From: a virus
Virus record (IMG/VR): IMGVR_UViG_3300034524_000011
Location: 11,938-75,937 of that record
Direction: 5' to 3' (one strand)
Length of the DNA stretch: 64,000 nucleotides
Shown here one piece after another: positions 4,450 through 52,266 of this stretch. A program made the position numbers and the translations under genes. The first letter of the stretch is position 1. The number at the start of each line of letters is the position of its first letter. The notes beneath the pieces are model-generated. The model worked only from the letters and a program-made list of their open reading frames with translations, was not told where the DNA came from and made no database searches.

Positions 4450-4965
4450 ATGGCAAACGATAAAATCGAAAAAACCAAAATCGAAGAGATCGAGCTTACT
4501 GAAGAGGAGAACAAAGGCCAGTTAAGGGCATACGAGGACGATATCCTCAAAGGCTTGTTGGCGGCCGCAAACTTCAAGGCCGAGGAAGACAATATTCAAA
4601 CCATCGAGATCGCAAGAAACGGCGTGGTTCTCTTTAAATTCCGCATCCGCCCATTGACCGAGGAAGAGTACCAGAACTGCAAAGAGAAGTACACGAAATA
4701 CGTCAGAAACAAGCAACTTGGCATTAAATTCCCTGAATACACCGACACTGTAAGATACAGAAGTGCCTTGATTTACCAGGCAACCATAGAGGAAGACAGG
4801 GCAAAGATCTGGGACAACAAGAGCGCATGGAAAGCCTTAAATGTGCTCAATGGTGTGGACCTTATAGACAAGACCCTGCTTGCCGGAGAGAAGGACGCTG
4901 TGCTTGAACTTATCGACAAAATCAGCGGTTATTCAGTCACTGCGGAGGAAACAGCAAAAAACTAA
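4450..4965 (+). CDS. Tail assembly chaperone (XkdN-like); -1 frameshift extension to 5126
   Basis: Lies between tube and TMP; ends GCA AAA AAC TAA with an open -1 frame. Confidence 0.88.
   Translation: MANDKIEKTKIEEIELTEEENKGQLRAYEDDILKGLLAAANFKAEEDNIQTIEIARNGVVLFKFRIRPLTEEEYQNCKEKYTKYVRNKQLGIKFPEYTDTVRYRSALIYQATIEEDRAKIWDNKSAWKALNVLNGVDLIDKTLLAGEKDAVLELIDKISGYSVTAEETAKN
4956..4962 (+). other. Programmed -1 frameshift slippery site A AAA AAC
   Basis: X XXY YYZ heptamer before the stop; -1 frame open to TGA at 5124-5126; conserved in copy 2. Confidence 0.8.
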
Positions 4966-5133
4966 TAAAAGCCGGAGGAATGGCCACTTTACTCCATCAC
5001 ATATTCCAGCGGATGGGCATTCCTCCGGACGAGGTTATGGCCAAACCGCCAGGAGTGAGAGCTTTCATGTTAGCCTCTATGCGCGTGCAGCTTGAGGAAG
5101 AGAATAACGAAGGAGAGGAGGATTGATTGATGG

Positions 5134-8100
5134 ATGGCAGCTGAAACATTTCGCATTGAGATACCTATCCACGTCGAGGATAAGACAGATCCTGGCGTCT
5201 CCCAGGCAACACGGAAGATAAATAAATTTGACGAGGCCAACCAGAGGACGCAGGAACGGCTAAACCAGATGAATAAAACAAAATATCAGGTCGTCCTTGA
5301 CGCGCTGGATAGGGCGTCAAGCATTGTCGGTAAAGTTTCATCAAAAGCACGCAGCATAGCAGGTAAGACGTTTAGCTTTACGATGAAAGTAATCGACTTG
5401 GCCACGGCGCCATTAAGAGCCTTATGGAATTTCGCGACATCCATACAAGGCGCCATACTCGGCGCTACCGGTGCATTTGCCGGTATTTATAAACCGATGG
5501 AAATAGCCGCAGATTTTGAGCAAACGCAGATTGCATTTGAAACCATGCTAAAAAGCGCCGAGAAAGCAGAGAAATTCCTGAAGGAAGCGTCAGAATTCGC
5601 AAATAAAACACCGTTTGAATTCCCGGAACTGATCAACAGCAGTAAGCTGCTAATGGCCTTCGGATTTGAAGCCGATAAGGTGCTGGATATGCTAAAGACC
5701 ATAGGTGATACTGCCAGCGGCCTGGGAGCTGGATCGGAGGGAATAGACAGAATCACAAGAGCCCTCGGTCAGATGCGGGCCAAGGGACGAGCACAAACAG
5801 AAGAACTCTTGCAGCTCCAGGAACTCGGCGTGCCGGCTAACCAAATCCTGCAGGAAGAGCTCGGTCTCACCGGAGAGCAGGTAGCAAACATCGGTAAAGA
5901 AAGCATAGAAGCATCAAAGGTTATAGAGGCATTGCTGCGAGGAATGGAAAAGCGCTTCGGAGGCATGATGGACAACCAATCCAGGACGGCCAAAGGTATG
6001 ATATCAACCCTTAAGGACACTCTCGAAAATTCACTTTTAAGACCATGGGGACAAGGTCTATGGGAAGGTATAAAGCCGGGACTTGAAAGGATCACAACCT
6101 GGATAGATGAGAACCAGGATATCATCGCAGAATGGGGAGAAGCCTGGAAGAAAGCAGGAGCAAATATCTCCAAATGGGTAATGGTCAGAGTAGATGGATT
6201 GAGAAACAGCATACAGCGTATGGTTAACTCCCAGGAGTGGAAAGACGCCAAAAACTTCGGAGAAAAGCTGAAGATAGCATGGGATCAGATAATAGCGCAG
6301 CCATTCAACGAATGGTGGAATTCAACCGGCAAAGCCTGGCTTGCAGATAAAGCCAGTAAGATAGGCGAAGGAATAGGAACTGCACTCTCCGCAGGATTAC
6401 TGACCATACTCGGAATAGACGCAAAAGGCGCTGTAGAGGAAGGGACCAGCATAGGTGCTTCATTTGCTGAAGGCTTCAAAAAGGGATTTGATGGGAAGAA
6501 GGTAGGAGAGGCACTCCTGAATGCTATAAAGGGAGTATTTAAAGATGCGGCAACGCTACTCCCAGGAGGAGAGGAAGCAAGCTCAACGTCCTGGCTGTCG
6601 GCTGGAGCAATAGTTCTCGCAATGCAAAAGCTCGGAATTTTCAAGCTGTTAGGCAAAGGCGGTAAAGGATTAATTAACCTCTTTGGCAAAGGCAGTAAAA
6701 GCGGAGCACCGGATACAACTGGAATACCATCGGCTTATGGAACAGACACCGTTTATATGACAGCTTCAATAGTTTATATTTACGGGAAGACAATCCAGGG
6801 TCCAGGAGGATCCCCAACAGGTGGCTCGCCGTTAGGAGGATATCCTTCACTGCCAACAGCAGGAAAAACCCCGTCATTGCCGCCGGCCGGAGGTTCGCCT
6901 TTAGCACTTCCGGGAGCTGCAGGAGCAGCGGGTAAAGCATTAAATACAGTGCAGCTGTCCAACGGAACTTATGTAGTCACAGGCGGAGCATTAGCAACCG
7001 GACTGGCCAAGACTGGCGTAGCGCTTGGCAGCGGAGCAACAACTGCAGGTGGAGCCATAGCAGCCGGAGCTTCAAGCGTACTGGGAGGCGCTTTCGGTAT
7101 TGCTGGACTTGGAGCCGGAGCAATAGACATCTACCAGGGCACAAAGAAAACCGGAAAAGAGGCCAAGGACGAATACTTCCAAGGCGGAACCAAGATAGGT
7201 ATGGTAGGAGCAGGCGCCGGCATAGGAGCTGCGGTAGGTTCCGTGGTACCGGTAATAGGAACCGGCGTAGGAGCTCTTGTAGGAGCAGGAATCGGTGGAG
7301 TGGCCGCACTTTTCACCGGAGATAAAGCAGGTAAAGCCTTATCGGACGCAACAGACAAAGACGGAGCTTTATCAAAGTTCTGGGAAAACACAAAGCAATG
7401 GGCAAGCAACACATGGGACTCCATCAAGACCGGAGCTTCAAACGCCGGATCCTGGGTGGCCGAGAAGTGGAACGCGGCTGGAGATTGGATCAGCAACAAA
7501 TGGAGCAGCTTCAGCGACTGGTTCGACACTTCGGTATGGACCCCGGTAAAAGACGTCGGAATATCGGCCATTAACATAGCAGCCGGCGCATGGAGTGAAG
7601 TCAGAGACTGGGTAGGAGAGAAATGGATCGATTTCTCCGCATGGTTCGACGAAAGCGTATGGACTCCGGTAAAAGACGCGGCGCAAGCTGCAGGTGAATG
7701 GGTAAGCCAGAGATGGGATGAAGCCAGGACGTGGATCGGAGACAGATGGTCTGATTTTTCTTCCTGGTTTGACGAATCCATATGGACCCCAGTAAGCAAT
7801 GCAGCGCAGGCAGCCGGCCAATGGGTAAGTGACCGCTGGAACGAGGCAAGGACATGGATAGGCGAACGCTGGTCCGACTTTTCAACATGGTTTGAAGAGA
7901 GCATATGGACCCCGGTCAAAACAGGAGCCCAGGCGGCAGGTCAGTGGGTAAGCGAAAGATGGAGCGAGGCCAAGGCCTGGGTAAGCGAGACATGGGGAAC
8001 TGTAAGCACCTGGTTTGATGAAACGGTATGGCAGCCGGTAAAAAGCGCAGCACTGACAGCCGGAGCATGGCTGGGAGATCAGTTCACAGCGGCAAAGAAC

Positions 8101-23619: not shown

Positions 23620-24771
23620 CTAATTTTTTGAGATTTCTTTTTCTACTTTTTCGAGATCCAAAACGACTGCAGAAGGACTTTCATTTTTGATGGTAGCATG
23701 CCGATTTAGATCAGCAGCAACCTGCTCCATCTTGTTTGGATACAGATGTGCATAGGTAGACATGGCCACCTCGACAGTATCGCCCAGGCGCTCGGCCACA
23801 GCCACGATGGAATAACCCAGCTCAACCAGCAAGGCAGCATGAGAATGACGGAGATCATGAACGCGGATCCGTTTCACGCCGGCAGCCTTGGCCGCCTCAT
23901 TGAGAGCACGCCCCAGAGTTCCCTTCTGGAAGTAGAATATACGGTCGTGCTCGTCGATATCATACAGAGCATTGATATACCGCATGACCTCATCATAGAG
24001 GAAATCAGGCATTGAGACATCCCGGTAACTGTTGTCGGTTTTAGGAGGCCCGTTCTTATCCTGGCCTTTGCGCCGGTGGTGAGTTTTTTCAATGCGGGCA
24101 ATCTTTGAGGGAAGGATATCGGCAGGCTGCAGAGCGAGGCACTCGCCTTCACGGAGGCCCAGCCAGTACATGAGCATAAAGGCAACACGGAAGCTCCAGT
24201 TTGTGACGTAAGCCATGGCCTGGTTAAATTCAGACAAGGTCCAGAATTTCATCTTCCCGGCCTTCTTTTTACCCATGAAGCCGGCAGGATGGCACGGATT
24301 AGACTTCAGGTTATAGAACTTAACCGCATAATTGAAAATGGCCGACAGCCGGCTATTTAACGACCGGATATAGGTTTCAGAATACTTTTTACCGGTCCGA
24401 GGATTTATGGCAGACATGACGGTGTTCTGCCAGTTCCGGATCGTCACGGCGTCAATTTCATTCACCGGGAGCTCACCAAAGTAAGGGAGCAGCCACTTGT
24501 CGATGATGGAATCCTGCGTGCCCTGCGTACCTTCCCGGACACGATGCTCGGCGTCGGCCCGGTACAATTCCACCAGGGAGGCAAACGACATTTCACAGTT
24601 CCGGCTATTCTTCAGGAGAAACTCACGCTCGAATGCCTGGGCATCCGACTTTTTATCGAACCCTTCTTTTTTCTTTTTTCGCCTCTTGCCGGTCCAATCA
24701 GTATACCAGAAGGCGGCGTACCATTTTTTAGCTCCACTTTTAGTTTCGTACTTATAGACAGGCAATCGCAT
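23620..24771 (-). CDS. int: Tyrosine integrase (true start may be TTG 24765)
   Basis: Arm-binding N-terminus; GLREGE (R), HDLRH, RLGD, TYAH (Y). Confidence 0.96.
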   Translation of the reverse strand: MRLPVYKYETKSGAKKWYAAFWYTDWTGKRRKKKKEGFDKKSDAQAFEREFLLKNSRNCEMSFASLVELYRADAEHRVREGTQGTQDSIIDKWLLPYFGELPVNEIDAVTIRNWQNTVMSAINPRTGKKYSETYIRSLNSRLSAIFNYAVKFYNLKSNPCHPAGFMGKKKAGKMKFWTLSEFNQAMAYVTNWSFRVAFMLMYWLGLREGECLALQPADILPSKIARIEKTHHRRKGQDKNGPPKTDNSYRDVSMPDFLYDEVMRYINALYDIDEHDRIFYFQKGTLGRALNEAAKAAGVKRIRVHDLRHSHAALLVELGYSIVAVAERLGDTVEVAMSTYAHLYPNKMEQVAADLNRHATIKNESPSAVVLDLEKVEKEISKN

Positions 24772-24830
24772 ACCCCCTTTTACAAAAGCCCCGGCCAGGA
24801 AGCAGGCCAGGGTTTAATTTTTCCCGAAGT

Positions 24831-25175
24831 TTATTCAGCTGCAGAGCCAGCCAGGACGTTATTAAAAGCAATTTCCCACTCAAGATATTTAGTAACCGCA
24901 AACTTGTACACTTCGCCGGCCTTCGTTTCAATCACAAGGACGTTATTGCTGAAGCCATGCTTCCCACGAGAGACACCTTTTATATCTTCCAAAGGGATCT
25001 CGAATTCATAATCGCCCTGCGTAAGGTTAACCAGGGCCCCGATGGCAATAATCTTTGAGAGTTTATGTCGGGAATAAATAAACCGACGGTTTGTCAGGAT
25101 CCCGCGCCCGTTTTGCACGTTAAAAGCGCCTTTTACCCTATTAGCAAGGCCTTCCATGATGATTTTTTCCTGCAT
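24831..25175 (-). CDS. PH-like (GRAM/bPH) domain protein in the lysogeny operon
   Basis: GILTNRRFIY...EIPLEDIKGV...LVIETKAGEVYKF pattern. Confidence 0.65.
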   Translation of the reverse strand: MQEKIIMEGLANRVKGAFNVQNGRGILTNRRFIYSRHKLSKIIAIGALVNLTQGDYEFEIPLEDIKGVSRGKHGFSNNVLVIETKAGEVYKFAVTKYLEWEIAFNNVLAGSAAE

Positions 25176-25186
25176 TTCACCACCCC

Positions 25187-25768
25187 CTAAAGATCAGGAA
25201 ACAATTCCTTCAAATACTCATAGTTTGCAGGAGACAGAGCCCGTGAAGTCAGAACACCCTGGAGCCAGAGCTCCATCCGGTTCTTGCGGCCACGCTCCGT
25301 TTTTAGCTGCGAAGCCTCTTCCCACGCGTGATCATAGGCACGCTTAAGGGCAGCATTAAATATCTGATCACGACGAGATCTGATATCCCGCAGCTGCGCT
25401 TTAAAATCATTTTGAGCCAGGCCGGCCAAAGCAAGATCAGCGTCCGAGGCCGACGCCAGCTGCTCCAGGAAATATTCCGCAGCAAAGAAACATGTAATAA
25501 ACTGCTGAAAAACGAGAGAGGAACTCGCAGCATTAGAGAACTTCACAAAGGCTTCATAAACCCTTACAAGCCGGTGTTCCAGGAAGGATTCGTCCACCCA
25601 GGCAACAGCACACCGGCAACCATCATGTAGCGGAGGCTCCAGGACAGAATGCCCCGCAATTTCAAAAACCTCATCAATCCTCACGGCCGTGCCTTCCAGT
25701 TTAGCACAAAGCGAACAGGTGCAATCGTCGGCCGATGAAGACCACACCTTAAACATACCCATGACCAC
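25187..25768 (-). CDS. Protein with N-terminal MuF-like Cys/His motif and helical C-terminus
   Basis: KVWSSSADDCTCSLC...PPLHDGCRC; RBS GGAGGGTG. Confidence 0.75.
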   Translation of the reverse strand: MVMGMFKVWSSSADDCTCSLCAKLEGTAVRIDEVFEIAGHSVLEPPLHDGCRCAVAWVDESFLEHRLVRVYEAFVKFSNAASSSLVFQQFITCFFAAEYFLEQLASASDADLALAGLAQNDFKAQLRDIRSRRDQIFNAALKRAYDHAWEEASQLKTERGRKNRMELWLQGVLTSRALSPANYEYLKELFPDL

Positions 25769-25813
25769 CCTCCTCTCAATCCCAGAAGATAAAGTACCGC
25801 CGTAATTCGCGCT

Positions 25814-26230
25814 TTAAGCTTTCTCTTTGAAATCAACAACAGGCTCGGAGGACTTGATCTCTTCGAGCGTTTTCAACATGTCAATATATTCTGCGGCCTT
25901 CTCCTTTGCTTCAGGGGAAAGACTTTCAATTTTTTTAATAAGTTCTTTGTCGCCAGACGAAATCGCCTCGGCCATCTTCGGCTTTGACTTCGACGTACCA
26001 CATTTTGAGGATCTGGCTCGACCCATTTCATCGGATAGTCCCAGGATGAAATCGGCGGAGACGTCATAAAGCTCGATAAGAGCCCTAAGCGTTTCAGGGT
26101 CGGGTGTGGTTGCGTTATTCTCGTAGCGAGAAAGGGACTTATTGCTCAAGTTAATCGCCTTGTAGACATCAAGCTGAGTGAGACCTGCCCGTTCTCGAGC
26201 CATACGAAGACGTTCTCCAAAAGTGAGCAT
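25814..26230 (-). CDS. XRE-family prophage repressor (CI-like)
   Basis: FGERLRMARERAGLTQ...LSRYENN...P HTH; divergent from cro. Confidence 0.9.
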   Translation of the reverse strand: MLTFGERLRMARERAGLTQLDVYKAINLSNKSLSRYENNATTPDPETLRALIELYDVSADFILGLSDEMGRARSSKCGTSKSKPKMAEAISSGDKELIKKIESLSPEAKEKAAEYIDMLKTLEEIKSSEPVVDFKEKA

Positions 26231-26601
26231 AGAGACACCTCCATTCTAACATTATATAACATTCGCAGGTTTTGAGAAAAATATTCTCAAAAATTTAGAA
26301 ATAACTATTGACTTCTCGGAAAACGAGACTTAAAATAGGATTAGAATTCTCAATAATTGAGTATACGAAAGGAGGGCACTAAAGTGAAGCCAATGCATCA
26401 GAGACTCCGAGAATATCGGGAGAGCAAAGGCGTGACCCAAACACACATAGCCAAGAAAACTGGCAAATCCGTTCAAAGGATAAGCGCGCTGGAAATAGGC
26501 GCAATCCGGCTGACGGTCGACGAATTCGAGGAGCTTTGTGTGAATGGCTACGAAGTCAACCCTGCAATTTTTTTTACGGATCAGTTCTCTAAAAATGAGA
26601 A
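26213..26601. promoter_or_regulatory. Immunity region: rightward promoter TTGACT(26308)-17-TAAAAT(26331) and six TTCTC-N7-GAGAA-like operators
   Basis: Sites at 26213, 26262, 26284, 26313, 26347, 26585. Confidence 0.8.
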
Positions 26602-26614
26602 CATCAAGCCGTAA
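26384..26614 (+). CDS. Cro-like XRE regulator
   Basis: LREYRESKGVTQTHIAKKTG...ISALEIG HTH. Confidence 0.85.
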   Translation: MKPMHQRLREYRESKGVTQTHIAKKTGKSVQRISALEIGAIRLTVDEFEELCVNGYEVNPAIFFTDQFSKNENIKP

Positions 26615-47114: not shown

Positions 47115-48515
47115 ATGGCTAACAATAATTTCAGGGAAATCGGCCGCATCGGACAAAAAAGATATGGTGGCTTTTTCTATGAGGAATTCCTGAAAGATCT
47201 CCAGGGAAGGAAAGGCGTCGAGGTTTACAAGGAGATGAGTGAGAACGACGATGTAATCGGCGCAATCCTTTATGCGATCGAGATGCTGATCAGGCAAGTG
47301 TCCTGGACGGTTCAACCAGGAGGACCCACAACAAAGGACGAGGAGGCCGCAGAGTTCATCTATCAGTGCATGGACGACATGCAGGACACCTGGACCGACA
47401 CGATATCTGAAATCCTTTCATTTCTGACATACGGATGGAGCGCTCACGAAATCGTTTATAAGCGGCGCGCCGGCAAGAGCAAGGATCCTCGACTAAACAG
47501 CAAATACAGCGATGGCCTCATAGGATGGCGCAAGCTGCCGATCAGAGCGCAGGAGACCCTCTGGGAATGGCTATATGACGACGAGGACAATCTCCTGGGA
47601 ATGGTTCAGATGCCGCCGCCAAAGTATGAGCTCATAACGATACCGATTGAAAAGCTGCTGATATTCAGGACCAAGAGCCGAAAAGGCAGCCCGGAAGGCA
47701 AGAGCATTCTCCGTAACGCATACCGCAGCTGGTACTTCAAGCGCAGGATCCAGGAGATAGAGGGAATAGGTATCGAAAGAGACCTGGCCGGTTTTCCGAC
47801 ATTGACAGCTCCGGAGGGAATGAACATCTGGGACGAAGACGACCCGGAAATGGTAGCTGTCAGACTGGCCGCAGACCGAATCGTCCAAAACATCAGGCGT
47901 GACAGCCTCGAAGGTTTGACATTGCCGGCCGGCTGGAAGCTGGAGCTCTTAAGCACCGGAGGACGCCGGCAGTTTGATACCAATGCAATCATCGAGCGAT
48001 ACGACACCAGGATAGCAATGACCGTCCTGGCCGATTTCGTTTTATTAGGCCACCAGAAGGTGGGCAGCTTTGCATTATCCAGTGACAAGACGGAACTTTT
48101 TGCAATGGCCGTCGGTGCATACCTGGACATCATTTGCGAGACCTTCAACAACAAGGCAATCCCGGCACTGATTGATTTAAACGCTCAACACTTCGCCGGC
48201 ATTACCGATTATCCGAAGCTGGGCCACGGAGACATCGAGAGCGCAGACATTCAGGCTCTGGCAACTTACATCAAGGATATGACCGGCGTCGGCGTACTGG
48301 TACCGGACGACCATCTCGAAGATTACGTGAGAGAAGTGGCCGGCCTGCCGGAAAGGCTGGATGATGGGACCAACCCCAGGCAGCCAAAACCGGCAAGGGA
48401 CAGAAATTCTGACGTGAAGCCTGGCAAAGAGGCAGACAGTGACGACCTGGTAGATTTGGAGGACGACGATGAAGCTGTAAAGAAGGCCATGGAGCGACTG
48501 GGGAGGTATGATTGA
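47115..48515 (+). CDS. Portal protein (Mu gp29/DUF935-like)
   Basis: GWSAHEIVY, PEGKSILRNAY..W.FK, GIERDLAG, GSFAL. Confidence 0.88.
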   Translation: MANNNFREIGRIGQKRYGGFFYEEFLKDLQGRKGVEVYKEMSENDDVIGAILYAIEMLIRQVSWTVQPGGPTTKDEEAAEFIYQCMDDMQDTWTDTISEILSFLTYGWSAHEIVYKRRAGKSKDPRLNSKYSDGLIGWRKLPIRAQETLWEWLYDDEDNLLGMVQMPPPKYELITIPIEKLLIFRTKSRKGSPEGKSILRNAYRSWYFKRRIQEIEGIGIERDLAGFPTLTAPEGMNIWDEDDPEMVAVRLAADRIVQNIRRDSLEGLTLPAGWKLELLSTGGRRQFDTNAIIERYDTRIAMTVLADFVLLGHQKVGSFALSSDKTELFAMAVGAYLDIICETFNNKAIPALIDLNAQHFAGITDYPKLGHGDIESADIQALATYIKDMTGVGVLVPDDHLEDYVREVAGLPERLDDGTNPRQPKPARDRNSDVKPGKEADSDDLVDLEDDDEAVKKAMERLGRYD

Positions 48516-51500
48516 TGTTCAGGATCCGGAAGTCAATTCACCTGCACCCGATACACAAGGCAAAGAGGAAGAGCAAAGCAGCACAAGAGGTCCTCGACAA
48601 ATTAAACGCATTCCTGGACGCAACGGAACCGGAGCCGGTTTATTTCCTCACCAGGCTATGGAACGACCAGCAGCAGGCAATAACATACAAGGAGCTGCGT
48701 GAGGCAATCCTCAACGGCTACATCGACGTGAAGACCATCCAGGCCTGGCAAAACGACTACGCAAACTTTGTAAACGAGCACCTGAAGCCCCTATGGATAG
48801 AGGCCATGCAGGCAGCAAATGCAGACTTGATGGCAGCGCATCCGGATTATTTCTTTGACCCCATGAGCCAGGGTGTCCTCAAATGGATCAACGAACACGG
48901 TGCCCAATGGGTAACGGTAATAGCGGAGGAACAGAAGGAAGCAATATCGGCCATGCTGCAGCATGCATACAGCGGAGCCTTCACCGTAGATGAGCTGGCC
49001 AGAACGATCCGGGCGACAATTGGCCTAAATAAGGTCCAGGCCAAGGCCAACCTGAACTATTATCAGCATGTGAAGAAAACTCTTCTGGAAAACAACCCAG
49101 GCATGAAGGAATCAACGGCCCAGAAAAAAGCCCAGGAAGCAGCAGCGAAATACGCGGCCAAGCAGCATAGGCAAAGAGCTTTCGCCATAGCAACAACAGA
49201 AATGGCATTCGCTTATAACAAGGGAGCTGACGAGGGAATAAAGCAAGCCCAGGAGCAGAACCTTATAGGCAAGGTGGTGAAGGTTTGGAGCACGGCAGCC
49301 GACGAACTCGTATGTTCTATATGTGGAGCCCTGGATGGTGTCGAACTGGAGATGGGCGCAGATTTTGATTTCAAAGGCAACCAGTTATACAGCGGTCAGA
49401 AGCAAACGCCGCCAGCTCACCCACGCTGCAGATGCGCGCTGCTTTACGTGGAGAAGGAACCGCCGAAATACAAGACGGTACCGGAGCAGGAAGTGATCCA
49501 GGACTGGAGCCCGGAAGATCAGATACCAACGCCCGAACCTCCGGACCCGGCAAAGCCCGTAATACCACCGTCAGAGAAAATGCCACCAGGCATGAAATAC
49601 AAAGGCAAGGCAAACCTCGGAGGAACCGGGGAAATGCATTCATACATCGACGAGACCGGCCAGGAGTGGTTATTCAAACCGGCACAAAGTAAATCCGGAA
49701 AACCGGAAGCCTTCAGAGCATATGTCCAGGAAGCCGGTTATAAGGTCCAGGCGATAATAGATCCGGACACAGCGGTACCGGTAGGAACAGGAGAGCTGGG
49801 CGGGAAGTTTGGAGCTTTCCAGAAGCGAATAAACACCATAGGCGACAAGATAGACCTGAAGCACTGGCAATACACCAGCGACCAGCTGCCGCCAGGAACG
49901 GCCGCACAGCTGCAGAGGGAACATGTAACTGACTGGCTGCTGGCCAACTTCGACAGCCACGGCGGCAACTTCGTAATGGACGACGCCGGCAGGCTCATAG
50001 GAACAGACAAGGAGCAGGCCTTTAGGTACATCAAGGAAATAGGCGCCCAGCAGATGAGCTACACATACCACCCTAACGCAACCTACGGAGAAACAGAGCC
50101 GATTTATAATACTTTATTCCGGAGGTTTGCAAAGGGAGAGATTGACCTGGATCTGCAGGATACCTTGACCTACATCAAGAGAGTGGAGGCGATCCCGGAC
50201 GACCAGTATCGTGAGATATTCAGGAGCTATGCAGAGGCCCTTCACGGGAAAGGCAAAGAAGCAGAGGAGCTGCTGGACCTGATCGTCGAGAGAAAAAACC
50301 GGTTAAGAGAAGACTATCGTCAGTTTTTCAGTGACCTTCTCACCGAGCGAACCGGAAAAAAACAAGTGTTCGTCTGGGCGGACGAGACAGCAGAGCATAT
50401 GAAGCAGCCACTGACAGCAGTAACACACGGCTCGGAAACCCTGCAAAAGATGAACATGGCAGAGCTCAAGCAGCTGGCCAAGCAAAAGCAGATCCCATAC
50501 TACAACAACATGAATAAGACCCAGCTGGTAACGGCCATATCGGACCCGGCAAAAGCGCCGGAAATGAGCGCCCAGGTAAGAAACAGACTGCTGGCCAACG
50601 AGGCAGCAAGGAAAGCTGCAGCAAGGACGCCGGCAGCACAGAAGGCCAAAGAGATTATATCTGCAGATGATGTGTTCCAGGACGCGTCGATTATTCCGGA
50701 GAAAAGGCTGGGAGTTCCAGTCAGGAGCGACAAGGGCAGCGTTGAAGGTCTCAATTTGACGGCCAGGAGAATGCGCCTGTTAGACGACGCAAGCGGTACC
50801 GAATATGAGGTATACGAAATATCCGGAAAACTCACCAGGGAAGCATGGTCCAAGACATGGGATAAAATGAAGCCAATAGGAGAAATAGGAGAGCTGGAAT
50901 TTGAGCTTGCAGACGATGTCAAAAAGCTCTTTGCTTCCAAGGCGGACCTCGGAGCTTCCATCCGGACCATAAAGGTAACCGACGGAGAAACCACATTCGA
51001 GCTTTATATCGATGGCCAGACAAGGAGATACAATGGATGGCGTGGTTTTTTCAGATTGAGAACTCCGGTAACCTCAAACGGAGCTGCGGACGCTGCAAAT
51101 ATGAGAAACATGCTGCAGAAGCTGGAGCTTGATGATCTTTTATTGAAACCGGACAGCGAGGCAGAAACGATCCTCAAAAAGAGCCGGCTTGTATGGCAAC
51201 ACGCTCCACATCGTATCCAGGAATTAGATGGTTTGACGCCAGAGCAAATACCGATTAAACTGGATATGATATTAAAGCAAGAAGGAATAGACCCGAAGCG
51301 TATAAATAACATGAAGCTGGTTAAAGTCTTCGAAGGCTATTCAACTTATGTCGAAGAGGGCATCGTGGAAACATACAAGAAGGCAGGCCTGAAATATGTC
51401 TGGACCGGAGTTCCGGACGGAGACGACATCGTGAAGATCATCCAAAGCCCTGGCCTGATGTCAAATAACAACCGTTTCAGGGCAGGATTGAGGCGCACAG

Positions 51501-51934
51501 GAGCAAGTCCGGTAGAAGACTTCCGGACCGGCGGCAGCGATAATGTATTCACCAGGATAGGCGTCAAGAATAAGAACAACCCAAGATTTGACGACTGCTA
51601 CCGAGGGAACCGATATCGCATTCTTATTGATCCAAAAGTCATGGAGAGAACCGACTGGTATGCATATGAAGGAGACTCGTTCGGAAGCTCGGATCCGTCG
51701 GCACTGGCCGGCAGGCTTTCGCCGGTGGAATTTATTCAGAGAATGGCCACAAGCTACCGGTACGGGAACGAAATCATGTTCAGGCACGGAATAGCTAAGG
51801 AGACATTCATCGGGATATCATGCCAGAGCAACGCGCTCCGAGCAGAGCTCCTGGAGAAGTTCAAACAGGCGCATATTACTGCAGTAAACGGGATACCGAT
51901 AGAAGATTTTGTAAAGGTGGGATCTACGATATGA
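48515..51934 (+). CDS. Long MuF minor head protein fused to PI3K/HipA-like kinase, HeH-like and ART-like domains
   Basis: RAFAIATTE, KVWST.AD..VCSIC, PPAHPRCRC; WLFKP, DSHGGNF, GTDKEQAF; LKQLAKQKQIPYYNNMNKTQLV; C-terminal GLMS..., GGSDNVFTR, NEIMF. Confidence 0.85.
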   Translation: MFRIRKSIHLHPIHKAKRKSKAAQEVLDKLNAFLDATEPEPVYFLTRLWNDQQQAITYKELREAILNGYIDVKTIQAWQNDYANFVNEHLKPLWIEAMQAANADLMAAHPDYFFDPMSQGVLKWINEHGAQWVTVIAEEQKEAISAMLQHAYSGAFTVDELARTIRATIGLNKVQAKANLNYYQHVKKTLLENNPGMKESTAQKKAQEAAAKYAAKQHRQRAFAIATTEMAFAYNKGADEGIKQAQEQNLIGKVVKVWSTAADELVCSICGALDGVELEMGADFDFKGNQLYSGQKQTPPAHPRCRCALLYVEKEPPKYKTVPEQEVIQDWSPEDQIPTPEPPDPAKPVIPPSEKMPPGMKYKGKANLGGTGEMHSYIDETGQEWLFKPAQSKSGKPEAFRAYVQEAGYKVQAIIDPDTAVPVGTGELGGKFGAFQKRINTIGDKIDLKHWQYTSDQLPPGTAAQLQREHVTDWLLANFDSHGGNFVMDDAGRLIGTDKEQAFRYIKEIGAQQMSYTYHPNATYGETEPIYNTLFRRFAKGEIDLDLQDTLTYIKRVEAIPDDQYREIFRSYAEALHGKGKEAEELLDLIVERKNRLREDYRQFFSDLLTERTGKKQVFVWADETAEHMKQPLTAVTHGSETLQKMNMAELKQLAKQKQIPYYNNMNKTQLVTAISDPAKAPEMSAQVRNRLLANEAARKAAARTPAAQKAKEIISADDVFQDASIIPEKRLGVPVRSDKGSVEGLNLTARRMRLLDDASGTEYEVYEISGKLTREAWSKTWDKMKPIGEIGELEFELADDVKKLFASKADLGASIRTIKVTDGETTFELYIDGQTRRYNGWRGFFRLRTPVTSNGAADAANMRNMLQKLELDDLLLKPDSEAETILKKSRLVWQHAPHRIQELDGLTPEQIPIKLDMILKQEGIDPKRINNMKLVKVFEGYSTYVEEGIVETYKKAGLKYVWTGVPDGDDIVKIIQSPGLMSNNNRFRAGLRRTGASPVEDFRTGGSDNVFTRIGVKNKNNPRFDDCYRGNRYRILIDPKVMERTDWYAYEGDSFGSSDPSALAGRLSPVEFIQRMATSYRYGNEIMFRHGIAKETFIGISCQSNALRAELLEKFKQAHITAVNGIPIEDFVKVGSTI

Positions 51935-52266
51935 TAGACCAAAGAGCTGTATACGTCTTCAAGCCACCGGGAGAAAGAGATTTCACCGGGATAGCGCTGG
52001 ATGTTCACATTCACAAAGAGGCCCTCCGGTTCTTTGACACCAACAGAGGACACGAGCTGCCAGGCAAAGTAACCCAGGAGACAGACAATGGATTTACATT
52101 CACATCAACGGGAATCATCCAGGGAGAATGGCAGTTCAAAGTTCTGGGAATTGGAGAGTTTAAGCGGAAATATTTCAAACTGGTCGAAGGCGGGCAAGCG
52201 CTGGCGGCCAAGCTACAAACCACAGAGGACCTCCACCAATGGTATCGGAGGGAGTTCAAGATTTAA
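51931..52266 (+). CDS. Small protein translationally coupled to MuF (candidate immunity protein)
   Basis: ATGA overlap; 111 aa; followed by a hairpin. Confidence 0.65.
   Translation: MIDQRAVYVFKPPGERDFTGIALDVHIHKEALRFFDTNRGHELPGKVTQETDNGFTFTSTGIIQGEWQFKVLGIGEFKRKYFKLVEGGQALAAKLQTTEDLHQWYRREFKI

Follow-up and report, generated by a model that had tools for sequence, protein, structure and literature searches.

What is the conserved end of a phage head protein doing behind a repressor gene? The question is raised by an open frame at 25187-25768 (minus strand, 193 codons) in the 64,000-nucleotide stretch of DNA analysed here (the window), whose source is a temperate phage from anaerobic digesters. 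The start codon is likely the ATG at 25762, because a ribosome-binding site, GAGAGGAGGG (25768..25777, minus strand; read directly from the sequence), lies 5 nt ahead of it and because most homologues start at that methionine as well, with 191 aa. The gene would then span 25187..25762, stop codon included, and encode a two-domain protein of 191 aa, in which an N-terminal Cys/His beta module of about 58 aa (MuF-type zinc module; 25589..25762, minus strand) is joined to a seven-helix domain of about 133 aa (HD; 25190..25588, minus strand). We refer to this protein as mini-MuF.

By homology, the N-terminal module corresponds to the final third of the MuF/gp7 domain, and the likeness extends to the MuF protein of the same phage, as the preliminary description of the locus had stated. 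BLASTP aligned mini-MuF to the resident virion MuF (1140 aa; 48512-51934, plus strand) over 77 residues at 31% identity (E 5e-12), and PF04233 and PHROG profiles agreed; the homologous module comprises residues 257-316 of the virion protein (49280..49459, plus strand). Profile positions 66-111 of 112 in PF04233 matched residues 7-55 with E 8.7e-6 and 26.9 bits against a gathering score of 29.6, the longer frame reached 30 bits in a six-frame search, and TIGR01641 gave 19.8 bits against a curated cut-off of 39.65. A whole-domain match to either model at the curated score was not reached by the 191-aa protein. Matches at E<=0.1 were obtained with 14 PHROG families; apart from the last, they cover residues 5-68 only, and most of the 14 carry a head or packaging annotation.

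When the mini-proteins were aligned with virion MuFs, D, both Cys of CxxC, L, F, G, PP, H and C-R-C were invariant, and K, W and the G of L[DE]G nearly so. This agrees with the residues that had been listed before (W, D, CxxC, L[DE]G, F and PPxHxxCRC), W and G being nearly invariant. The Cys/His motif of the MuF family (CxxC ... PPxHxxCRC) is thus present in the protein, and it is found across the mini-MuF family. Modelled alone, the module reached a pLDDT of 83 and had no matching fold (Foldseek E>=2, VIA Z<=3.1). Sequence searches of the PDB returned one chance-level match for the protein and none for the MuF domain. The module is acidic, with a pI of 4.5, and the corresponding stretch of the resident MuF has a pI of 4.8.

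Proteins of the MuF family dock in the head by way of the portal and leave it with the DNA (PMC6316719, PMC7290940, PMC12889711). In SPP1, the portal targets gp7 to the procapsid (PMC6316719). [quoted passage not shown] Its incorporation requires the C-terminal crown of the portal (PMC12889711). In the papers on MuF carriers and polyvalent proteins, MuF figures as a virion domain located beside the portal, and lysogeny-module forms are not mentioned (PMC5576092, PMC5512222). Compared with MuF, SPP1 gp7 and 80alpha gp44, the N-terminal 55 or so residues of mini-MuF are homologous to their C-terminal Cys/His stretch and keep the same invariant residues, whereas the helical N-terminal two-thirds of the domain are absent, the gene lies behind cI instead of beside the portal gene, and the module is joined to an HD unrelated to these proteins. 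In gp44, the homologous stretch is residues 257-309. We rejected a transfer of DNA-end binding from gp44 to the module as the default assumption, since the module is acidic and the tail by which gp44 binds DNA is, on the contrary, strongly basic (pI about 10); a further argument against it is that most of this basic tail falls outside the homologous stretch.

MuF-family proteins presumably dock on the portal, and next to muf the window encodes a Mu-type portal protein of 466 aa (47115..48515, plus strand; Pfam Portal_Mu, E 2.2e-41). In 38 homologues, portal residues 404-466 comprise a variable acidic linker followed by an invariant terminal A-x3-L-G-R. By analogy with 80alpha, where the end of the portal crown is needed for gp44 incorporation, this terminal motif could be a docking peptide. 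A complex prediction for the portal (A5) and mini-MuF (A1) scored 0.00 against a mark of 0.32, was run without controls, and counts neither way. The virion MuF itself has its PF04233 domain at residues 208-310 and a Rho_N/SAP-like motif at 644-676, and its roughly 800 C-terminal residues are mostly without domain assignment. A small ORF (51820-52266) overlaps the end of muf, where immunity candidates for MuF toxins reportedly lie (PMC5576092). The 75.9-kb virus record contains the MuF gene twice, at C1:4618 and C1:61067, about 56.4 kb apart; because of this repeat, the record is probably a concatemer or a circularly permuted assembly of a genome of about 56 kb.

In the AF2 model of the whole protein (pLDDT 91, pTM 0.85), seven helices pack against the small beta module, and the HD helices (residues 66-189) are modelled at pLDDT >90. 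Alignments A1, A2 and A8 revealed three conserved HD motifs, D-x3-N-x-A-x2-R-A-[YF], L-K-T-E-x-G-[RK] and L-S-P-x-N-x-E-Y-L. The proposal that HD derives from the helical part of MuF by permutation or divergence was rejected, as hhalign gave a probability of 0.4% for this pair; the earlier view of a fusion to an unrelated helical domain of about 135 aa therefore holds. HD matched nothing in Pfam, PADLOC or NCBIfam, no model of PADLOC-DB 2.0 matched either mini-MuF or its neighbour, and a search of the ESM Atlas gave no usable match. Foldseek on the PDB returned nothing at E<=0.001 for the whole model, and the wide VIA-align search gave generic helical matches only, the best of them to MIT-like three-helix bundles at Z 7.2 over 70 residues (rmsd 2.9), which is below the noise level for helical models. 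The best BFVD matches (E about 3e-3, TM 0.54-0.59) are annotated as 'minor capsid' or uncharacterised phage proteins and may be members of the mini-MuF family. The sequence of the 191-aa protein has no obvious membrane-spanning stretch; mini-MuF is a soluble, cytoplasmic, two-domain protein.

How would such a protein come to be expressed? The gene lies on the minus strand between the repressor and integrase genes, and its position had been given correctly. Upstream, a cI-like repressor of 138 aa (25814..26230, minus strand) has an N-terminal HTH_3 domain (Pfam E 9.5e-14), matches PHROG transcriptional regulator and repressor families, and is without an S24 peptidase domain. The repressor gene is preceded by a promoter-like site, TTCTCA-16-TATAAT (26251..26278, minus strand; a consensus match only, 10/12), which is the probable start of the lysogeny operon, and a cro-like HTH gene (26357-26614) diverges from it. 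The gap between the cI and mini-MuF genes measures 52 nt and contains no terminator or hairpin. Downstream lie a third cistron for a PH/GLUE-like protein of 114 aa (24831..25175, minus strand; weak Vps36 GLUE match only, E 0.028), a terminator-like hairpin of 8 pairs, 7 of them G-C, with a T-rich tail (24789..24812, minus strand; pattern match only) in the interval before int, and the tyrosine integrase itself (23620..24771, minus strand; 383 aa; Pfam Phage_integrase, Phage_int_SAM_3 and Arm-DNA-bind_4). With cI upstream and no hairpin in the gap, and with the PH-like gene, the hairpin and int downstream, the mini-MuF gene looks like the second cistron of the repressor operon. Since it has a strong ribosome-binding site of its own and the 52-nt gap holds no terminator, co-expression with cI is likely.

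The preliminary description had called the protein probably lysogen-made, and operon anatomy (second cistron, strong ribosome-binding site, no terminator) speaks for this. The available RNA is uninformative: parts of the stretch are present in 24 metatranscriptome runs from anaerobic digesters, and in contigs from 4 of these 24 runs lysogeny and lytic genes were covered alike and DNA may be included, so that they say nothing on lysogenic expression. RNA-library contigs from four digester samples all end at 23639, just past int. Past int in the related prophages L016, L017, L018 and L088, we read a guaA-like gene by eye, and the breaks at 23639 fit integration at the 3' end of guaA.

To what extent the arrangement is conserved can be seen from the close relatives. 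A search of 5.8 billion proteins yielded 49 clusters with 46-100% identity in which both halves were covered; some clusters carry an extra N-terminal zinc ribbon, CxCG...CPxCG. Four clusters of 112-133 aa (P0047-P0050) are without the MuF module and represent HD only. Pairwise dN/dS values ranged from 0.07 to 0.5, mostly 0.15-0.2, in both halves, and both halves are under purifying selection. Down to about 30% identity the two-domain architecture is kept, and the metal ligands do not vary, nor does a set of polar residues in HD. None of the close relatives that combine the zinc module with HD has a predicted membrane segment.

Nine IMG/VR contigs share one gene order, with HTH175 and cro pointing one way and, divergent from them, cI, mini-MuF, a variable slot and int. 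The same order was found in four prophages of Clostridia, Dethiobacter and Bacillota assemblies, where the gene past int was again read by eye as guaA, and in further bioreactor and fermentation contigs. MuF genes normally adjoin the portal gene in the head module; here the gene is found between cI and int and is separated from the portal gene by about 21 kb, and the same placement away from the portal is seen in 13 related loci. Since the close family occurs in a single phage lineage only, one that appears to integrate at guaA, this positional conservation is partly inheritance. A scan of genome contigs with the single protein found nothing, and in a sample of 400 other genomes from the phylum none contained an HD match; HD is therefore rare.

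Within this lineage, the neighbours of mini-MuF vary. In L007, identity of mini-MuF drops to 37% while cI holds at 64%. In L006, the mini-MuF gene sits 20 nt behind a different repressor, composed of an HTH and Peptidase_S24; the tie is thus to the slot and not to one repressor, and a specific partnership with the C-terminal domain of cI, which we had considered, is weakened by it. On the other side, the slot after mini-MuF holds a PH-like protein, a 164-aa zinc-ribbon membrane protein, a 369-aa membrane protein, or nothing. The PH-like gene is present in L001-L004, L008, L009, L015 and L088, whereas L005-L007 and L016-L018 lack it or have another gene in its place. We rejected the idea of the downstream PH-like gene as an obligate partner, since the slot is variable and, in L005, empty. 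The 164-aa protein (L007:6567-7061, L017:1362-1856, L018:8582-9076) starts with a CxCG...CPxCG zinc ribbon and also has membrane segments. Mini-MuF itself occurs in 250-aa forms that are extended at the N-terminus by a similar ribbon, which suggests module shuffling within the slot. HD-only forms are found in L008 and L009, and these phages retain a MuF of 1141 aa; in that lineage, the zinc module is therefore dispensable.

Beyond the close family, HD takes on other partners. A profile built on HD by itself matched 67 clusters (at 50% identity) among 1.8 billion representative proteins. A word-based search for longer fused forms of HD had found none; the full profile search then found such forms. 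Predicted N-terminal membrane segments are present in 33 of the 67 clusters, and HD of these anchored relatives would face the cytoplasm, on the inner side of the membrane, because positive charges flank the predicted segments. About 16 of the 67 carry a MuF-type zinc module (confirmed for P0057, P0080 and P0109), which is placed before HD in the window protein and P0057, after HD in P0109 and at the far C-terminus in P0080; P0103 carries a Phage_min_cap2 (MuF2) segment. In P0065, HD is fused to TerB_N, and this part of the protein matches SngA, a defence protein of Shango (E 5.8e-12); other HD proteins have a C-terminal domain in common.

Two distant HD members could be placed on contigs, L023 and L083; with P0057, P0103, P0065 and P0066 as queries, the viral contigs yielded no usable match. 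In L023, the gene for P0109 is the first after a cI-like HTH gene that diverges from cro-like genes, and int follows downstream. The sole PF04233 match on this phage contig (78% complete) is the zinc motif of P0109 itself, and no virion MuF was detected on it. In L083, a P0101-like protein composed of membrane segment and HD is encoded by the first gene after a cI-like HTH gene, followed by a Mrr_cat nuclease gene, others, and then int. The nuclease gene, which directly follows the gene of the anchored HD protein, encodes 139 aa with a restriction-endonuclease fold (L083:2874-3293, E 5.9e-27); the lysogeny module of L083 holds a small defence-like island. The first 63 or so residues of the distant HD protein P0081 represent a basic module, which is present in 47 IMG/VR contigs (L024-L070, e.g., L043:5001-5201 and L028:5001-5915), either on its own as a protein of 66 aa or joined to further domains. 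It usually lies just upstream of a serine or tyrosine recombinase gene (five contigs inspected by eye) and may be another piece of lysogeny modules.

The zinc module recurs without HD as well. A metagenome scan keyed on the motif PPLH[DE]GCRC returned ordinary MuFs of 300-430 aa, and additionally proteins of 163-211 aa that join the module to other domains. L111 encodes a small protein of 162 aa with the module, and L117 one of 107 aa (44.4 bits), which is the same in L112 and L114-L116. The L117 and L111 proteins, which are unrelated, match positions 63-112 of PF04233 only and are encoded between a Phage_CI_repr-type repressor and a large serine recombinase. The theme is therefore more than a one-off: as the contexts of L023, L083, L111 and L117 attest, both modules, separately and together, recur directly behind repressors on unrelated backbones. 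In L100, a gene read as portal is followed by that of a 543-aa protein with the module at its N-terminus. On L123, a protein of 163 aa (4872-5363) combines a MuF-type zinc module with another domain, the next ORF (5375-5680; 101 aa) is barstar-like by eye only, and no phage genes were seen nearby; the pair may be a minimal toxin-immunity cassette that uses the module. Of the zinc-module contexts examined, a few were unclear; the majority were lysogeny or head modules of phages or cassettes of a toxin-like kind.

From these data we infer that mini-MuF most likely interferes with other phages and is less likely to control the switch of the phage that encodes it. This is because both modules recur behind several repressor types, membrane-tethered relatives exist, HD is fused to or located beside defence-type domains (TerB_N, Mrr_cat), and mini-MuF diverges faster than cI. 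Counting against it, the zinc module is dispensable in one lineage, catalogued defence families gave no match, mini-MuF is without a membrane segment, and its module is acidic, unlike the gp44 tail. In the form that we tentatively put forward, as a serious possibility that falls short of an even chance, mini-MuF would be a rex-like accessory of the immunity operon that acts on other phages, with its zinc module as a copy of the MuF end. Transcripts from the promoter-like site would run through cI, mini-MuF and the PH-like gene to the hairpin, so that the protein would be made together with the repressor in the lysogen. The zinc module, copying the conserved end of the ejected head protein, would compete for, or sense, the partner of that end in MuF-bearing phages (portal crown or injected genome complex). 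HD, which in the family is preceded by either a predicted membrane hairpin or a MuF-type zinc module, would be the effector or adaptor part. It is unlikely, in our estimate, that such proteins form a widespread class of prophage weapons, in which lysogen-made MuF ends would replace MuF on the invader's portal or entering genome and cripple progeny or DNA, with HD, membrane-tethered in many relatives, as the effector arm. The decoy or anti-superinfection reading of the preliminary description is plausible and gained from the anatomy, from a conserved family under selection and from the recurrence behind cI, while its proposal that an injected MuF effector is neutralised is disfavoured (see below).

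The position of the gene has precedents. Lambda rexA/rexB and superinfection-exclusion genes of Gram-positive phages (Sie2009, Ltp) are encoded in the cI-int region, and the classical superinfection-exclusion proteins of Gram-positive phages have a membrane-spanning stretch. Like rexAB, the mini-MuF gene is co-oriented with, and directly downstream of, the repressor gene and presumably expressed in the lysogen. Like the exclusion proteins, about half of the HD relatives are membrane-anchored, whereas mini-MuF itself is not, and no relation in sequence or fold was detected between mini-MuF and RexAB, Sie2009 or Ltp. The likeness to Shango SngA runs through the TerB_N domain of one distant HD protein, P0065, and the window protein is without TerB_N. 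Tab, a protein encoded by a prophage, prevents invading phages from assembling their virions (PMC10884400). Should the decoy reading hold, mini-MuF would follow the same logic, a lysogen-made saboteur of assembly, by a mechanism that for mini-MuF is hypothetical.

The same position is also that of ImmA. ImmA/IrrE metalloproteases are encoded in immR-immA-int operons of ICEBs1 and many Firmicutes phages, and the mini-MuF gene likewise lies directly downstream of the repressor gene and upstream of int. A component of the switch that modulates repressor, integrase or induction from the ImmA position (as anti-repressor, co-repressor or signal sensor) is nonetheless rather unlikely in our view. On three backbones the gene always follows the repressor directly, which would suit it, as would a repressor that in the window consists of 138 aa with an HTH only and without an S24 autocleavage domain, and the faster divergence of mini-MuF than of cI is what specificity partners often show. 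Yet mini-MuF has no Pfam match to Peptidase_M78/ImmA, and its four histidines are not in an HExxH context. The gene is also found behind an S24-type repressor, which has its own induction route, and the repressors of L023, L083, L111 and L117 differ. Further, the membrane anchors of about half of the HD relatives, and their fusions to unrelated domains, argue against a dedicated switch protein.

Could the resemblance to MuF be incidental? The gene might be a moron, a host-directed or otherwise unrelated accessory, whose Cys/His module is a generic zinc-binding interaction module with no relation to MuF partners. Its appearance in many architectures, including proteins of 107 to 211 aa, membrane proteins and toxin-like cassettes, fits this view, and so does the persistence of HD-only forms. 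By every profile, however, the closest relatives of the module are head proteins, and the module came to lie between cI and int repeatedly and independently, which favours a role connected with phages; we consider the moron quite improbable. The preliminary description had considered that the motif might prove a generic zinc module common in unrelated contexts; half of this applies, in that the module does occur in several architectures, whereas most of the loci examined are lysogeny, head or toxin-like loci, i.e., phage or conflict loci, with a few unclear.

Packaging was considered as well, in that the zinc module could be a head-targeting tag by which the protein is loaded into the phage's own particles once the prophage is induced and carried to the next host. 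MuF domains do carry effectors (PMC5576092, PMC5512222), and minimal zinc modules joined to other domains lie beside a portal-like gene in L100 and beside the barstar-like ORF in L123. The gene nonetheless belongs to the repressor operon and not to the late genes, and HD-only and membrane-anchored relatives are not packageable, so we regard this route as highly unlikely.

Least probable of all, and hardly to be expected, is an immunity protein against the phage's own 1140-aa MuF effector injected by sibling phages: that MuF does have about 800 aa of extra C-terminal domains and a lysogen needs protection from kin phages, but what mini-MuF shares with it is the MuF core, to the exclusion of the effector domains, the same long MuF (about 1141 aa) is also found in phages whose HD protein lacks the zinc module (L008, L009), the L023 contig has only P0109's own PF04233 match, and candidate immunity genes of MuF polymorphic toxins lie directly downstream of muf (PMC5576092), where the small ORF overlaps the muf end here, whereas the mini-MuF gene is about 23 kb away and on the other strand.

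As had been suggested at the outset that no system like this was known, we looked for a paper describing a lysogeny-operon system with a MuF module and found none in the literature searched. Within that literature, mini-MuF and its HD relatives are apparently an undescribed family of accessory proteins of lysogeny operons. Genes that ride in repressor operons are what a prophage expresses in its host, and many of them turned out to be defence systems. In the present case, two modules recur directly behind cI on several unrelated backbones of temperate phages, the first being a helical domain without a Pfam match and the second the zinc-binding end of a head protein whose function is poorly understood. 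If mini-MuF regulates the switch instead, it would represent a new alternative to ImmA-type control of induction in anaerobic Firmicutes. If the mimicry of MuF is true, it would be a new way for prophages to fight their relatives, and it would allow genetics to be used to find the binding partner of the conserved MuF end in proteins such as SPP1 gp7, Mu gpF and 80alpha gp44.
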